Source: an uncultured Eubacteriales bacterium
GTDB lineage: Bacteria > Bacillota > Clostridia > Oscillospirales > CAG-272
Assembly: GCA_902462015.1 (NCBI GenBank)
Contig: CABPZV010000001.1
Span: forward strand, 1 to 53,440
DNA: 53,440 nt
Direction of reading: 5' to 3'
The notes under the pieces were generated by a model that ran no database searches, had not been told where the DNA came from, and saw only the letters and a list, made by a program, of their open reading frames with translations. Below are positions 16,449 to 53,440 of the stretch, piece by piece (position 1 is the stretch's first letter; each line of letters opens with the position of its first letter). The position numbers were made by a program, and so were the translations under genes.

Positions 16449-16482
16449 AAGATTTAATTGTGTTTTAGTAACCGTATAATTT

Positions 16483-16538
16483 AAAAAAACAAAGGCGGAC
16501 AAACGAAAACTACCACGCGTGTCTGCCTTTGTTTTTTT
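16483..16538 (+). terminator. intrinsic (bidirectional-looking) terminator after clpX
   Basis: A-run, stem CAAAGGCGGACA (16490-16501) with TGTCTGCCTTTG (16520-16531), then TTTTTTT (16532-16538). Confidence 0.7.
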
Positions 16539-16563
16539 ATTACGGTATTGCTATTACTGCTTT

Positions 16564-16701
16564 TATAACTTAGGTAAAATGTTCCCCGCCTCTAAGGCGG
16601 TGGCCTCTAAGGCTGCGGTTTACATTTCACCATTCAGTAGGAGATTGCATCTCCCACTGAATGGTTGCCATGTTTAGTGACGGTGCAAGCTCCTTATTGA
16701 A
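16564..16701 (-). repeat. modular intergenic repeat, copy R2 (reverse orientation, 2 GCCTTAGAGGC units)
   Basis: TATAACTTAGGTAAAATGTTCCCCGCC...core palindrome...GGTTGCCATG...GCAAGCTCCTTATTGAA. It lies between the clpX terminator and the tRNA-Gly 3' end. Confidence 0.9.
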
Positions 16702-16717
16702 TTTGATATACATATAA

Positions 16718-16791
16718 TGGAGCGGATAACGGGAATCGAACCCGCCTTATCAGCTTGGGAAGCTGAAGTTTTACCACTAAACTATATCCGC
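16718..16791 (-). tRNA. tRNA-Gly (anticodon CCC), CCA encoded
   Basis: Minus strand GCGGATATAGTTTAGTGGTAAAACTTCAGCTTCCCAAGCTGATAAGGCGGGTTCGATTCCCGTTATCCGCTCCA folds as a cloverleaf: 7-bp acceptor, TCAGC/GCTGA anticodon stem, loop TTCCCAA, T-loop TTCGATT. Confidence 0.9.
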
Positions 16792-36660: not shown

Positions 36661-36813
36661 TTCAATAAAGGGCTTGCACCGTCAAATGACGTGGCAACCA
36701 TTTCAGTAGGAGATTGTATCTCCCACTGAATGGTGAAATGTAACCCGTCGCCATTAAAGCTGCCGCTTTAATGGCGATTGCCTTAATGGCGGGGACATCT
36801 TGCCTAAGTTATA
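36661..36813 (+). repeat. modular intergenic repeat, copy R3 (forward orientation, 3 internal units, closest to consensus)
   Basis: TTCAATAAAGGGCTTGCACCGTCAAATGACGTGGCAACC, core 36698-36733, GGTGAAATGTAACCCG, CGCCATTAAAGCTGCCGCTTTAATGGCG, ATTGCCTTAATGGCGGGG, ACATCTTGCCTAAGTTATA. Confidence 0.92.
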
Positions 36814-43449: not shown

Positions 43450-44031
43450 ATGACAAGATCGGATCTTAATCTTAATAATCTGTCGCTTGCGGCAGTTGCC
43501 GGGATACCGCAGCAGTTTGTCTGCGACGGGCTTCCCCAAGTCGCTTTTTCCGGACGCTCCAATGTCGGAAAAAGCTCGCTTATTAATACTTTGCTCGGAA
43601 GGCGCTCATTGGCCAGAGTCAGTTCAACACCGGGAAAAACTATCACGGTAAATTATTATGATATTGACGGAAAGCTGTATTTTGTCGATCTTCCGGGATA
43701 TGGTTTTGCAAAGCGCAGTCCAGAGGAGAGAAAACGGCTGTCAGGACTTGGCGACGGATATTATGCGAGTCAGAAGCCAGCTCTTACTGTTCAGCTTATC
43801 GATATAAAATCAGGGCCTACGGCAGATGATTATACTATGCTTGATTTCCTCAGACGTACGGAAAAGCCATACGTCATTGCGGCGACAAAATGCGACAAAA
43901 TCGGTAGAACTGAACTGAACAAAAGGATTTCTGACCTTTCCGAATATGGTCAGGTTGTTGAGTTTTCTTCTCTTAAAGGGACCGGACGTGACGAGCTATG
44001 GAATCTGATAATTGCTTCGGCGGTGGTATAA
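43450..44031 (+). CDS. engB: ribosome biogenesis GTP-binding protein YsxC/EngB
   Basis: GRSNVGKSSLIN (G1), DLPGYG (G3) and TKCDK (G4). Conserved position after lon. Its TAA stop lies inside the end box of repeat R4. Confidence 0.92.
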   Translation: MTRSDLNLNNLSLAAVAGIPQQFVCDGLPQVAFSGRSNVGKSSLINTLLGRRSLARVSSTPGKTITVNYYDIDGKLYFVDLPGYGFAKRSPEERKRLSGLGDGYYASQKPALTVQLIDIKSGPTADDYTMLDFLRRTEKPYVIAATKCDKIGRTELNKRISDLSEYGQVVEFSSLKGTGRDELWNLIIASAVV

Positions 44032-44223
44032 CTCAGGCAAGATGTCCCGCTATTAAGGCAATCGCCATTAAAGCGGCCGCTTTAATGGCGGCGGGTTACA
44101 TTTCAAAATTCAGTGGGAGATACAATCTCCTGCTGAGTGGTTGGCCACGCCATTTGGCGGGGCAAGTCCCTTATTGAATCCGGCGACGGAACGCCGCATA
44201 GCGGGCTTTCAGCCCTTATTGAA
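44027..44223 (-). repeat. modular intergenic repeat, copy R4 (reverse orientation, 3 internal units) plus a duplicated end module
   Basis: The core element is 44027-44178: TATAACTCAGGCAAGATGTCCCGC...28-nt perfect palindrome 44063-44090...core palindrome...GGCAAGTCCCTTATTGAA. The segment 44179-44223 adds a second CCCTTATTGAA end preceded by the small hairpins CGGCG/CGCCG and GGGC/GCCC. Confidence 0.9.
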
Positions 44224-44264
44224 TACATGCTGTATATGTGTTTTAGAAAGGAATATAGTTACAG

Positions 44265-49242: not shown

Positions 49243-50001
49243 ATGGACCTTGATAATAAAAAGAATGAAGTTAAAGGGGAATGTGTCCGTATTCAAAAAT
49301 ATATCTCAGACTGCGGTATAATGAGCCGCAGAGCTGCGGAACGCGAGATAAGGCTGGGCAATATTAAAATTAACGGAATTTGTGCGGAACTTGGCGGTAA
49401 AGTCGATCCTGCGTCAGACGTTATCACTATCCGGGGCAAACAGATAAGGGGTAAAGATAAAAAGATAACCGTTATGCTTAATAAGCCTGCAGGGTATATT
49501 ACAACACTGTCGGATGAGTATGGCCGAAAGTGCGTGGCGGATCTTGTATCGGATTATGGTGTGCGTCTGAATCCGGTGGGGCGGCTCGATAAGGATTCCG
49601 AGGGGCTCTTGCTGATGACTAACGACGGAATGCTTCTGCAGCATCTTACGCATCCGCGCTATAGTCTTCCTAAAGTCTATATTGTAACGGTAGATACAGT
49701 AATAACCGATAATCAGTTTAATTATCTCAGAGAACCTATGGAAATAGACGGTTATAAAATACGCCCTGTTCTATCGGAGATATTAGAAAGCTCATCAGAA
49801 GGTCATACGGTTTTACGTATGACGCTTCACGAGGGAAGAAACCGGCAGATACGAAAAATGTGCGCTGCAGCTGGACTTTCAGTAATTCGTCTTGAACGAG
49901 TTGCAGTCGGCGAGCTTACACTTGGAGAACTTCGTCCCGGGGAAAGCAGGCTTCTCACTGCCTCACAGCTTGAATATTTGTATTCGGCACTTAGCCTGTA
50001 A
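49243..50001 (+). CDS. rluB: pseudouridine synthase, RsuA/RluB family, with N-terminal S4 domain
   Basis: RIQKYISDCGIMSRRAAEREI (S4 domain) and catalytic GRLDKDSEGLLL. Confidence 0.88.
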   Translation: MDLDNKKNEVKGECVRIQKYISDCGIMSRRAAEREIRLGNIKINGICAELGGKVDPASDVITIRGKQIRGKDKKITVMLNKPAGYITTLSDEYGRKCVADLVSDYGVRLNPVGRLDKDSEGLLLMTNDGMLLQHLTHPRYSLPKVYIVTVDTVITDNQFNYLREPMEIDGYKIRPVLSEILESSSEGHTVLRMTLHEGRNRQIRKMCAAAGLSVIRLERVAVGELTLGELRPGESRLLTASQLEYLYSALSL

Positions 50002-50095
50002 ATAATTTCTATCTGTAAGAATTCTTTTCAGGGTATAATTATGATTATAAAATAATATAGAGAAGTACATAATAAATGTACATTTTTGTGATATA

Positions 50096-50304
50096 TAAAA
50101 AGCTTCCGTATTCCTAATAGAGTTTCAATAAGAGGCTTGCCCCGTCAAATGGTGTGGCAACCATTCAGTAGGAGATTGTATCTTCCACTGAATGGGGTTG
50201 CCACGCCGCCTTAGAGGCCACCGCCTTAAGAGACGATCGCCATTAAGGCTGCAGCCCTAATGGCGAGACATCTTGCCTAAGTTATAAGGAATACGGAATT
50301 TTTG
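50096..50304. terminator. bidirectional intrinsic terminator whose loop is occupied by repeat R5
   Basis: AAAAA (50097-50101), stem TTCCGTATTCCT (50104-50115), exact complement AGGAATACGGAA (50287-50298), then TTTTT (50299-50303). Between the stem halves lie 8 nt of loop (aatagagt) plus the 163-nt R5. Confidence 0.7.
50124..50286 (+). repeat. modular intergenic repeat, copy R5 (forward orientation, 4 internal units, palindromised core flanks)
   Basis: TTCAATAAGAGGCTTGCCCCGTCAAATGGTGTGGCAACC, then the core, then GGGGTTGCCACGCC in place of boxC, then GCCTTAGAGGC, GCCTTAAGAGAC, CGCCATTAAGGC and GCCCTAATGGCG, then AGACATCTTGCCTAAGTTATA. Confidence 0.92.
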
Positions 50305-50320
50305 TTTTTATATTTACAAT

Positions 50321-53236
50321 TTATTCAGTTTCGTTATTGATTACCATTTCCATGAACTGCTGTCTTGTAATTAGAACGGTACGGGGCTTCTGACCTTCGG
50401 GAGGTGAAACGACGCCCATATCTTGCATTCTGTCGATAAGCTTAGCGGCTCTTCCGTACCCCAGCGATAAACGGCGCTGAATCAGAGAGGTGGATATTTT
50501 ACCGTTATCTACCGCCAGCTCAATGGCTGATTTAAGCATGGGGTCAAATCCGTCGCCGTCAAATCCGTCCGCGGCCGAAGATCCTCCTCCGCCTTTTTTG
50601 CCTCCTGATGTTCCGCATTTCTGAGCTTCCTGCTCTATCTGTTCAATTATGCCGTCATCATAGTTGCCGGTTCCATAGGTTTTGGCAATGAAACTAATTA
50701 TATTGTCTATTTCTGTTTCGCTGACATATGCTCCTTGAACACGTATCGGCTTTGTTGAACCTACAGGAGAGAAAAGCATGTCTCCGCGTCCGATCAGTTT
50801 CTCAGCTCCAGTCATATCGAGAATAACGCGGGAATCCATCTGCGCGGATACTCGAAATGCGATTCTTGAGGGAATATTTGCTTTAATAAGGCCTGTAATA
50901 ACATCTACAGATGGGCGCTGAGTTCCAAGTATCAGGTGCATACCGGCCGCACGTGCTTTTTGTGCAAGACGGCAGATTGATTCCTCTACATCGTCGGGAG
51001 CGGTCATCATGAGGTCGGCAAGCTCGTCGATAATTATGACAATCTGCGGGAGCTTTTCAGTGTCGCGGTCGTTTTCTACAGCCTTGTTGTATCCTTTGAG
51101 ATCTCTAACGCCTACTTCCTCGATAAGACTGAATCGGCGTTCCATTTCGGTAACTGCCCACTGCAGTGCGCCTGCTGCCTTTTTAGGGTCGCTGACTACG
51201 GGGACAAGAAGATGCGGAAGTCCGTTGTATATATTTAACTCAACCTTTTTAGGATCAATCAATATAAACTTGACTTCATCCGGCTTTGCCTTGTAAAGCA
51301 GACTTACAATCATGCTGTTGATGCAGACGGATTTACCCTGTCCTGTAGCTCCTGCAATCAGCAGATGAGGCATTTTGGCGATGTCAAGGTAAATCGGTTC
51401 TCCGGCAACGTCTTCTCCGAGTGAAGCGGTCAGCTTACTTTGCGCAGAAGTGAATTTTTCGTTCGAGACAAGCTCTCTCAGATAAACGGTCGCTACGATC
51501 CGATTCGGAACTTCGATTCCGACGGCTGCTTTTCCGGGAATCGGAGCTTCTATACGTACGCCGGAAGCGGCAAGATTCAGTGAAATGTCGTCGACGAGCG
51601 CAGAGATAGCCCGTACACGTACGCCAGATTCCGGCGCAAGCTCATATCTTGTAATTGTCGGCCCGCGTGAAATGTTGATGACTTTTGCGCTGACTTTAAA
51701 GCTTGTAAGAGTATCTATGAGTTTTTTTGCCGTTGTCTGCAGTTCTTCGCTGATATCAGTGTTTATCGGGGAAACAGGTGCTGATAAAAGCGAAAGCGGC
51801 GGAAAAACGTACTTTTGATTTTTCTTCGGAGGTGCTTTTACCGACGCGATGTTAAGCGCATCCTTTTGGAGAAGCAGTTCCGGATCTTTTGGACCGTTAA
51901 TTATGTTTTCCGTGTAGGTGTCAAATTCCGCAGCACCTTCTCCGCTCTCATCGCTGTTACTCAGAAAACGTGTGAGCAGCTCATCGCTGATAGGATTTTG
52001 GTCTGATTCAGTCTGATGTTTTTCAGCAAAGCTGGCAAGCTTTTCTGCAGATTCGGTAACTCCGTTTGCGTGCCAGGCTTCATCTTCTTTTTCGATTATA
52101 TCGGCTATAGCATCAAATTTATCGTTCGAACCTGACTTATCCGGGGTATTGGGGTTTATATCATCGGATGGAATTCCTTGTGCTATGGCTTCGTTTTGCC
52201 TGTTTAGCACATTTTCAAAGATCGCTGGATCTATTTCGCTGAAAGTCTCGCTTTTCGTGCTTTCTTCCGTTTCAGTCTCGGCCTTTGGATCAGACGAATC
52301 CGCTTGATTTTCAGACGAAAAGATTCCGAATATTTTCGGAATTTTCTTAGAGATTTTTTCTTTTTCGGCGATGCTGTCAGATACCTCGTCTACCGATGTG
52401 TCAACCGACGAAATATCGAGCTGCTTTCCTTTCTTTTTTTCGCGGGTGTCTGAGCTGTTATTTATATCATTGTATGCTTTTTCGTTTGTATAATATTTTT
52501 GCTCATCAACCCATGCCGGTGTTTTTCTTGTATTTTCGTTGGCTTCTTCGTGCCTTTCACGCCTCTCGTGAATTTCATAGGCAATTCTCAGCCAAATCAT
52601 GTAAGGTGTAAGTCCGATATAAAATATACTGAGCAGTATTACAAGCACCAAAGATACAATCACAGTGCCGACAGATCCGATTCCGCGGCAGAGAAGCATG
52701 CCGATAAGTCCTCCTGCAGCTCCTCCTCCAATGCTGTTTTTGCCTTGCTCGAAGAAATATACTATATCCTCGGTCTTGTTTTCAATCATTTCTCCGCCGG
52801 TGAAAACATACAGAAGAACCGAAACAAAAACGATTAGAAAAAATGCGAAAATAACCTTATACCATACAGCATTGTTTTCGTGGTCACGGCGCCAGAAAAA
52901 TGCTCCGATAAAAATAAGAACGGGAACGATAACGGCTCCGCGCGAGAACAGACCATACAGTGTATTTTTTACAATCGGGCCAAGTCCGCCCATCATATCC
53001 GGAATTATCAGCGATAATGCTATAAGCAGTGAGATAAGAATAAGTATTCCCGGAAAAAGCTGAGTAAGCAATGTGTTTTTTGGTTTGGCAGCTGCGTTTT
53101 GTTTGTCTGCATGAGATTTATAAGTAATTTTTGACGATTTTGCAGCAGGTTTTTTTGTATTCCCTGCAGTTCTTGTCTTTCTTGTGCTTTTTGAATTTTT
53201 TTTGGATTTTGAAGAGGTTCCGGTTTTGCCGGCCAT
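50321..53236 (-). CDS. ftsK: DNA translocase FtsK/SpoIIIE
   Basis: N-terminal TM helices, a long acidic linker, Walker A GATGQGKS, Walker B IVIIIDELADL, and a C-terminal gamma domain. Start moved to M27 of the track ORF (MAGKTGTSS), downstream of AGGAAGGAAGG. The first 26 track codons read into repeat R6. Confidence 0.93.
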   Translation of the reverse strand: MAGKTGTSSKSKKNSKSTRKTRTAGNTKKPAAKSSKITYKSHADKQNAAAKPKNTLLTQLFPGILILISLLIALSLIIPDMMGGLGPIVKNTLYGLFSRGAVIVPVLIFIGAFFWRRDHENNAVWYKVIFAFFLIVFVSVLLYVFTGGEMIENKTEDIVYFFEQGKNSIGGGAAGGLIGMLLCRGIGSVGTVIVSLVLVILLSIFYIGLTPYMIWLRIAYEIHERRERHEEANENTRKTPAWVDEQKYYTNEKAYNDINNSSDTREKKKGKQLDISSVDTSVDEVSDSIAEKEKISKKIPKIFGIFSSENQADSSDPKAETETEESTKSETFSEIDPAIFENVLNRQNEAIAQGIPSDDINPNTPDKSGSNDKFDAIADIIEKEDEAWHANGVTESAEKLASFAEKHQTESDQNPISDELLTRFLSNSDESGEGAAEFDTYTENIINGPKDPELLLQKDALNIASVKAPPKKNQKYVFPPLSLLSAPVSPINTDISEELQTTAKKLIDTLTSFKVSAKVINISRGPTITRYELAPESGVRVRAISALVDDISLNLAASGVRIEAPIPGKAAVGIEVPNRIVATVYLRELVSNEKFTSAQSKLTASLGEDVAGEPIYLDIAKMPHLLIAGATGQGKSVCINSMIVSLLYKAKPDEVKFILIDPKKVELNIYNGLPHLLVPVVSDPKKAAGALQWAVTEMERRFSLIEEVGVRDLKGYNKAVENDRDTEKLPQIVIIIDELADLMMTAPDDVEESICRLAQKARAAGMHLILGTQRPSVDVITGLIKANIPSRIAFRVSAQMDSRVILDMTGAEKLIGRGDMLFSPVGSTKPIRVQGAYVSETEIDNIISFIAKTYGTGNYDDGIIEQIEQEAQKCGTSGGKKGGGGSSAADGFDGDGFDPMLKSAIELAVDNGKISTSLIQRRLSLGYGRAAKLIDRMQDMGVVSPPEGQKPRTVLITRQQFMEMVINNETE

Positions 53237-53286: not shown

Positions 53287-53440
53287 TATAACTTAGGCAA
53301 GATGTCCCTGCCATTAAGGCAAGCCATTAAAACTGCCGCTTTAATGGCGATCGCCTTTCAGGCGACGGGTTACATTCACCATTCAGTGGGAGATACAATC
53401 TCCGACTGGAATGGTTGCCACGCCATTTGACGGGGCGAGC
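53287..53440 (-). repeat. modular intergenic repeat, copy R6 (reverse orientation, 4 internal units), truncated by the window end
   Basis: TATAACTTAGGCAAGATGTCCCTGCC...GCCATTAAAACTGCCGCTTTAATGGCGATCGCCTTTCAGGCGACGGGTTACATTCACC, then the core, then GGTTGCCACGCCATTTGACGGGGCGAGC. Confidence 0.9.

Follow-up and report, generated by a model that had tools for sequence, protein, structure and literature searches.

A dispersed self-complementary repeat probably inserted long ago into the bidirectional terminator between rluB and ftsK in an uncultured gut Clostridia species

How does a repeat that recurs along a genome come to lie exactly between the two halves of a terminator stem, and what becomes of a terminator that is split in this way? 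This question is raised by the spacer between two convergent genes, rluB and ftsK, in a 53,440-nt stretch of DNA (the window throughout this text; contig CABPZV010000001.1 of GenBank assembly GCA_902462015.1) from an uncultured Eubacteriales bacterium of the Oscillospirales lineage CAG-272. The spacer contains R5, one copy of a dispersed repeat family, bordered on both sides by the arms of an inverted repeat. We hold with good confidence that R5 is an old, fixed insertion of this non-coding, self-complementary repeat into the bidirectional terminator of rluB and ftsK.

The convergent arrangement of the two genes, named in an initial annotation of the sequence, agrees with the domains of their products. 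The rluB product has a PseudoU_synth_2 domain and its homologues are named 23S rRNA pseudouridine-2605 synthase by one source, and the ftsK product, whose start position was taken from the 971-aa gene call, has an FtsK_SpoIIIE domain. Between the genes, the order of the site is TATATAAAAAGC-TTCCGTATTCCT-AATAGAGT-R5 (TTCAATAAGAGG ... CCTAAGTTATA)-AGGAATACGGAA-TTTTTGTTTTT. Reading the sequence confirmed that R5 is flanked by exact reverse-complement arms, with AAAAA before them and a T-tract after them. The arms TTCCGTATTCCT and AGGAATACGGAA match at 12 of 12 positions and are now 171 nt apart. The A-tract, 2 nt from the stem, reads as the terminator T-tract for the minus-strand ftsK transcript.

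Chance origin of this complementarity is excluded. With up to one mismatch, the 12-mer arm is expected 0.27 times in the window, and three matches were reached in none of 100 shuffles; elsewhere in the window, it has a single chance match with one mismatch. The duplex formed between the two flanks of R5 has an energy of -26.6 kcal/mol, as against a mean of -9.5 kcal/mol (sd 3.3, minimum -18.8) for mismatched pairs of left and right flanks (n=90, from ten copies). Two further copies, R8 and R9, lie on short contigs that appear chimeric (L112-L116), and these were left out of the pairing test because their flanks recombine between assemblies.

When R5 was removed in silico, the terminator hairpin posited by the initial annotation was restored, with a stem of 12-13 bp (5 G-C pairs) and a loop of 6-8 nt. 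Its predicted energy is -20.7 kcal/mol on the plus strand, where T5GT5 follows, and -19.5 kcal/mol on the minus strand, where GC and T5 follow, so that T-tracts are present on both strands. This hairpin has the stem, loop and U-tract of an intrinsic (Rho-independent) terminator, defined here as a G+C-containing stem of at least 5 bp, a loop of 3-8 nt and a U-tract directly 3' of the stem. The initial annotation had placed the insertion inside the loop. The repeat does lie within the hairpin, but its right homology end coincides with the first base of the 3' arm, and without R5 the bases A50116 and T50123 are able to pair, giving a 13-bp stem and a 6-nt loop. The insertion point is therefore at the junction of loop and stem, adjoining the 3' arm, rather than in the middle of the loop.

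R5 belongs to a family of repeats of 136-212 nt, represented six times in the window and at no fewer than four further loci in other contigs, which look like the window's organism or a closely related one. Four of the latter copies, R7 (L102-L109), R10 (L111), R11 (L110) and R12 (L117), were found by comparing a translated frame of the element with a protein collection, in which it occurs as spurious open reading frames. The ends of the family are sharp and common (TTCAATAAGG...CTAAGTTATA), with TTCAA at the start and GTTATA at the stop of every copy. The boundaries first proposed, TTCAATAAG...AAGTTATA, agree with the points at which homology starts and stops among 12-14 copies. The bases 5' of TTCAA are not conserved among copies, and TTCAA itself probably belongs to the element, since a solo fragment at 44211-44224 reaches 8 nt past it. 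Among the flanks of 10-12 copies there is no consistent target-site duplication, which extends to the family what had been noted for R5. We rejected one candidate, the TATTAT found on both sides of R6, as AT-rich promoter DNA that is not seen at other copies.

The element has three parts. A conserved 5' module consists of TTCAATAAGGGGCTTGCCCCGTCAAATGGCGTGGCAA followed by a 16-bp palindrome, CCATTCAGTAGGAGAT/ATCTCCCACTGAATGG, and in R5 it holds a central hairpin of 16-25 bp. Next comes a middle array whose palindromic units, ~15 nt long (GCCATTAAAGC / GCTTTAATGGC, GCCTTAGAGGC) and numbering 2-9, alternate in orientation. The third part, also conserved, is the 3' module GGGACATCTTGCCTAAGTTATA, which in R5 ends in GACATCTTGCCTAAGTTATA. 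The family has no terminal inverted repeats (TIRs): the 5' end, TTCAATAAGGGGCTTGCC, is unlike the reverse complement of the 3' end, TATAACTTAGGCAAGATG, and the two asymmetric ends have only a direct CTTGCC in common. No open reading frame runs across the copies, and most of them have stop codons in all six frames. Searches against Rfam gave no family at the gathering threshold or with permissive E-values, the tRNA being the only match in the whole window and the best sub-threshold matches over 50000-50330 being miRNA-hairpin noise. The family had no match in plasmid and phage collections (blastn), nor did two of its conserved motifs in IMG/VR viral contigs.

Several copies depart from this plan. 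R7, R10 and R11 form a sub-family whose 5' module contains an additional nested hairpin, GGGTTGGCAAAGCCAACCTGC, and R12 (212 nt) has three tandem GCCTTAGAGGCCAAC units. At 50194-50207, R5 has a private GGGGTTGCCACGCC in place of the GGTGAAATGTAACCCGCC of other copies. Both lineages of the species share this replacement, which is the reverse complement of the opposite GTGGCAACC and lengthens the central hairpin by ~9 bp; it has the look of a 'palindrome-perfecting' event by template switching.

Comparison with related species shows the corresponding spacer without the repeat. In GTDB, sampled as one genome per species, the window's own species is not among the matches and the nearest one, a sister species (L002, L099 and L100), has an RluB that is 81% identical, with the next relatives at no more than 63%. 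Synteny with the sister species extends over 20 kb, and neither nhmmer --max nor a covariance model of the 5' module (run over ~52 kb) found a family copy in it. The R4, R5 and R6 sites in the sister species thus hold no family copy. The rluB-ftsK spacer is 158-160 bp long in the sister species and 319 bp in the window, or 156 bp once R5 is subtracted (319-163). The sister spacer contains an uninterrupted 13-bp hairpin, GAGGCTGTGACGA-ttatttaat-TCGTCACAGCCTC, with A/T tracts alongside and an energy of ~-31 kcal/mol. The end of this hairpin is 16 nt away from the stop codon of ftsK, as against 22 nt for the 3' arm in the window. The empty-site comparison that had been proposed thus yielded an uninterrupted hairpin in a spacer of the expected length, but not the exact same stem in uninterrupted form. 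At the R4 site, the sister spacer measures 99 bp as against 233 bp in the window, including the 152-nt R4. From these comparisons we infer that the event was an insertion into the window's lineage.

Beyond the sister species, ~0.8 Mb of sequence from 79 other related species gave no match to the covariance model, as against a density of about one copy per 9 kb in the window's species. The family is apparently found only in this species of uncultured gut Clostridia and in contigs resembling the same or a close organism. Within the species, the RluB cluster (23 members) comprises only two lineages, at least 97% identical to the window's protein, with about a dozen substitutions or indels between their spacers. 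R5 with intact arms is present in both lineages and in all strains sampled, and the R4 and R6 sites are likewise filled in both. The initial annotation had stated that the element is, or was, mobile; with R4, R5 and R6 filled in both lineages, only past mobility is indicated, and the claim stands for past spread and not for present mobility.

The fold of the element offers a way in which a split terminator could have been kept. R5 with its arms folds far more stably than shuffled sequences (z = -8.9 on the plus strand and -8.5 on the minus strand). On the most economical account, this lineage-specific, non-autonomous family would have multiplied in intergenic DNA once the sister species had diverged, or at about that time, and one copy would have landed at the junction between the loop and the 3' arm of the terminator common to rluB and ftsK, putting the 12-nt arms 171 nt apart. 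This insertion was probably tolerated through self-folding: the ends of the element, and hence the arms, would stay close, and a closing helix followed by a U-tract could still form in both transcripts. In the modelled equilibrium ensemble, all 12 pairs of the split stem form with probabilities of 0.89-1.0 on both strands, which favors the initial proposal that the self-folded element reunites the stem halves (predicted pair probabilities of at least 0.89). If the arms are held together in this way, the terminator may still work as a branched hairpin, and the insertion could for that reason have been tolerated and fixed. We infer this tolerance, and any termination that is retained, from predicted folds.

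The folds say less about which molecule carries the structure. Few base pairs show compensatory changes (3-4 across 6-14 copies; 3 of the 29 that were predicted), and conservation of the family is at the sequence level, with the central palindrome strongly conserved. We therefore rejected covariation as evidence of RNA-level structure; with so few compensatory changes and with strands that fold equally well, the folds do not distinguish one strand from the other, or RNA from DNA structure. A closing helix of 5' GGGC with 3' GCCT is present in the six-copy consensus fold and is not recovered in the 14-copy consensus. Upstream of the split stem, a weak AT-rich hairpin is a possible first, weak terminator of rluB. 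It is also present in the fold of the transcript up to the end of the element, and the terminator scan missed it because it has fewer than three G-C pairs.

A number of results weigh against an insertion into a terminator that still functions. Within the species, look-ups of RluB and FtsK as exact sequences, and of two variants of RluB, found no empty site or insertion polymorphism at R4, R5 or R6, and an uninterrupted TTCCGTATTCCT stem was not found in any sampled strain. The sister hairpin is positional, not sequence-level, support because the stem sequences differ. At a spacer divergence of ~4%, arms that are unchanged in both lineages are expected by chance (P ~0.4). Transposition is deduced from dispersal only, because the family has no TIRs, no target duplication and no identified autonomous partner or transposase; no transposase lies next to element ends in the ~61 kb of contiguous DNA and the few short contigs that were read. 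In its present form, with a 171-nt loop, the site is not called as a terminator by a simple terminator scan. Finally, since the arms are transcribed 171 nt apart, co-transcriptional kinetics may let the stem form too slowly. A metagenome scan for TTCCGTATTCCT-N(0-30)-AGGAATACGGAA returned two long hairpins, which we set aside as unrelated and from other organisms.

Table 1. Features of the rluB-ftsK site and copies of the repeat family in the window
Feature	Position	Strand	Basis
rluB-like pseudouridine synthase gene (252 aa), upstream convergent gene	49243..50001	+	Open reading frame list, Pfam PF00849
Weak AT-rich hairpin GTACAT-aataa-ATGTAC, then A + TTTTT	50065..50087	+	Read from sequence
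A-tract AAAAA, then GC	50097..50101	+	Read from sequence, fold
5' arm of split terminator stem, TTCCGTATTCCT	50104..50115	+	
Leftover original loop, AATAGAGT	50116..50123	+	
Repeat copy R5 (163 nt)	50124..50286	+	blastn, alignments, covariance-model match 89.7 bits
3' arm of split terminator stem, AGGAATACGGAA; adjoins last R5 base	50287..50298	+	
Plus-strand (rluB) terminator T-tract, TTTTTGTTTTT (T5GT5)	50299..50309	+	
ftsK (971 aa), downstream convergent gene	50321..53236	-	FtsK_alpha, FtsK_SpoIIIE, FtsK_gamma
R1 (136 nt), 5 nt past secA (minus strand) stop codon	892..1027	+	
R2 (138 nt), between clpX (+) and tRNA gene	16564..16701	-	
R3 (153 nt), at pyruvate:ferredoxin oxidoreductase (PFOR) gene terminator	36661..36813	+	
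R4 (152 nt), downstream of GTPase gene (43450-44031)	44027..44178	-	
R6, cut by window end (53440); complete in L095:8039-8202	53287..53440	-	

The position of R5 raises the possibility that the element, or its transposase, seeks hairpins or single-stranded loops, and that R5 is the rule and not an accident. The initial annotation had suggested hairpin loops as targets, and several observations fit. R5 interrupts a hairpin, and the intact 12-bp terminator hairpin of the PFOR gene (minus strand) is followed, straight after its T5 tract, by R3. An imperfect hairpin begins 1-2 nt beyond the end of R7, and a small hairpin precedes R4 by 4 nt. Single-strand transposons of the IS200/IS605 type seek hairpins or loops, and HUH/Y1 elements have neither TIRs nor target duplications, two absences shared by the present family. 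There are also precedents in other elements, with IS1397, ISKpn1, IS621 and ISPpu9 inserting into repetitive extragenic palindromic (REP) sequences (PMC1525189) and group IIC introns sitting downstream of terminator stem-loop motifs (PMC1702495).

The survey of other copies speaks against such targeting. Split inverted repeats flank R5 and no other copy among the ten with reliable, testable flanks. By a single uniform criterion, two to three of the ten copies have a perfect hairpin around the insertion site or no more than 5 nt away, which is not above the background of 6-18% among intergenic positions of the window (P = 0.12-0.28), and R1, R2, R6, R10, R11 and R12 have no hairpin association; the sample of ten copies is small. 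The copies in the window divide into three on the plus strand and three on the minus strand with no GC-skew switch, which argues against a lagging-strand-specific single-strand insertion. Elements that target palindromes or terminators resemble the family in sitting inside (R5) or directly after (R3) an extragenic hairpin, but they are autonomous (1-2 kb, or a ribozyme with a reverse transcriptase) and the hairpin is their rule, whereas here it concerns 1-2 of ten copies of a family whose R5 has 163 nt and no ribozyme match. Structure-directed targeting is thus unlikely.

Another explanation treats the family as a module recruited by the host, for instance to stabilise mRNA 3' ends, to bind a protein or to act as a structured regulatory RNA, that spread by recombination or gene conversion and was kept by selection, with R5 and R6 regulating ftsK. 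Host-recruited functions of this kind, such as mRNA 3'-end stabilisation, have been proposed for REP sequences and bacterial interspersed mosaic elements (BIMEs). All copies checked (R4, R5 and R6) are fixed in both lineages, copies lie at gene ends and in leaders of the core genes secA, clpX, PFOR and ftsK, and conservation of the central palindrome is strong. With R6 in the 5' leader of ftsK, 1 nt past the -10 box, and R5 antisense in the 3' region of that gene, an R6/R5 duplex of ~160 bp (-230 kcal/mol) is possible. Selection for a transcript-borne function is harder to reconcile with the lack of any orientation preference relative to transcription (four antisense and two sense copies in tandem-gene contexts) and with the compensatory changes at just 3 of 29 predicted pairs, conservation being at the sequence level. 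Moreover, the closest relative does not have the family and its orthologous genes manage without it, module number is very variable and some copies, such as R11, are truncated. We consider recruitment by the host to be quite improbable.

A more far-reaching idea is that the family represents an undescribed type of mobile element without TIRs or duplication, moved by an enzyme that recognises single strands or hairpins and integrating at or beside extruded hairpins, with its own fold insulating the interrupted terminator and with the R6/R5 duplex (~160 bp) controlling the fate of the ftsK mRNA. HUH/Y1-type or other non-DDE mechanisms would be in keeping with the lack of TIRs and duplications; as a whole, this idea is decidedly unlikely. 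Barely credible is the proposal that the arms belong to the element, as the TTCCGTATTCCT/AGGAATACGGAA TIRs of a longer variant or of a second inverted-repeat element in which R5 is nested and not as a host terminator, since arms of about this length in classical miniature inverted-repeat transposable elements (MITEs; PMC3184786) and their perfect conservation in both lineages are outweighed by the lack of these arms or of any inverted terminal extension at other copies, the near-uniqueness of the 12-mer in the window noted above, the flanking A5 and T5GT5 tracts, as for a bidirectional terminator, and the sister terminator hairpin at the same place with a matching spacer length.

An old insertion of a dispersed repeat places the family among known kinds of small dispersed bacterial repeats, which include MITEs, REP/BIME, bcr1 and ERIC (PMC3184786). 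We conclude that it is a MITE/REP-like intergenic repeat, undescribed so far, and a real but ordinary feature. With bacterial MITEs (Correia/NEMIS of Neisseria, Nezha, Chunjie, RUP and ERIC; PMC3184786) it shares a size of 100-200 nt, the absence of coding capacity, dispersed intergenic placement, very stable predicted folds, overlap with gene ends (the stop codons at R4 and R10) and lineage-specific amplification. Like a classical MITE, it is small, non-coding, multi-copy (at least ten) and absent from the orthologous R4, R5 and R6 sites in the sister species. It differs from a classical MITE in its asymmetric ends, with neither TIRs nor target-site duplication, and a related insertion sequence (IS) with the family's ends is not known.

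The partial likeness to REP/BIME sequences and their RAYT (Y1) transposases (PMC3333891, PMC2817692) lies in GC-rich palindromic units of ~15 nt, numbering 2-9 in alternating orientation, in extragenic placement near gene 3' ends, in the lack of TIRs or duplications and in fixed, seemingly static copies. However, REP/BIME units are palindromes of 20-40 nt, whereas the present family is a composite of 136-212 nt with unique 5' and 3' modules and a large central hairpin, and a conserved tetranucleotide of the GTAG type was not identified in it. The bcr1 repeat of the Bacillus cereus group (PMC3184786) is comparable as a dispersed intergenic repeat of ~155 nt from a Firmicute with a multi-stem predicted structure. 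The present family differs in having no target duplication, and it has no similarity to any Rfam family. The target duplication carried by bcr1 is TTTAT. Non-autonomous, palindrome-associated elements derived from IS200/IS605 are alike in lacking TIRs and duplications, in having hairpins near both ends and in their asymmetric ends, and TTCAA, the conserved pentanucleotide of the left edge, might in principle be the target rather than element sequence. In contrast to such elements, the family has no orientation bias (three plus and three minus copies in 53 kb, a small sample), and no TnpA/TnpB partner was seen.

R5 provides a clean, dated case in which a structured repeat interrupts a terminator stem and is kept across a whole species, and it suggests that a self-folding insert inside an RNA hairpin can be neutral or nearly so. 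The case should be useful for terminator prediction, where loop length is normally capped, and for the annotation of uncultured gut Clostridia, where such repeats break assemblies. The newly defined family, with its consensus, modules and boundaries, could act as a strain or species marker. It introduces no new biological principle, as dispersed structured intergenic repeats and insertions in or near palindromes are already well documented.

The effect on assemblies was visible at the locus itself, where many short-read contigs break off 168 or 179 nt past rluB, that is, inside R5, and many Logan contigs likewise finish inside R5. In L106:3377-4300, R7 is followed by a guanylate kinase gene and not by the SpoIIE gene of L102-L109, and contigs L112-L116 have recombined flanks around R8 and R9. 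The differences in the flanks of R7-R9 reflect either copies that recombined with one another or chimeric contigs assembled across the repeat. In the sister species, a 45-bp segment is missing from contig L101 (1382-1496), and with it the 5' arm of the rluB-ftsK hairpin; this is either a natural deletion or an assembly artefact.

Two genes are ended by independent copies of the element. At R4 (44027-44031) and R10 (L111:1338-1342), the terminal TATAAC gives the upstream gene its TAA stop codon, the genes being those of the GTPase (R4) and of a pseudouridine synthase in L111 (R10). The GTPase ended by R4 has 193 aa, as in the sister species, with its last four residues different. At a distance of 45 nt from R4, on the minus strand, the solo left edge at 44211-44224 consists of 14 nt, ATTCAATAAGGGCT (a flanking A and the first 13 nt of the element), and is followed by a small hairpin, GGGCT-gaa-AGCCC. 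This edge may be the remnant of a second copy.

Inverted copies of the family bracket ftsK, with R6 sense in the 5' leader and R5 antisense in the 3' region. R6 begins immediately (1 nt) after a TG-extended -10 box (TTGTAA-17-TATTAT). The predicted R6/R5 RNA duplex of ~160 bp has an energy of -230 kcal/mol, as against -173 kcal/mol for two separate self-folds; if formed, it could link the ends of the ftsK mRNA or make an RNase III substrate. Instead of a short empty spacer, the sister species has at the R6 site an ftsK leader of unrelated sequence that is ~285 nt longer (L099:13836-14273 vs L095:7936-8252). This longer leader lies between a conserved promoter-like region and a conserved ribosome-binding region; it matches no Rfam family and is not repeated within 20 kb. 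Upstream of ftsK in one strain of the window's species (L096:1-4500), genes for MobA/MobL, TnpV and a sigma-70 family protein replace those for TrkH and a two-component system; this segment is a strain-specific mobile island.

Elsewhere in the window, R2 sits 19 nt after the 3' end of a tRNA gene (16721-16791, minus strand). Between clpX and R2, at 16460-16563, we found a long hairpin resembling a bidirectional terminator, AAAAAAACAAAGGCAGAC...GTCCGCCTTTGTTTTTTT, with a loop of ~20 nt, which provides an example of an intact large-loop terminator in the same genome.

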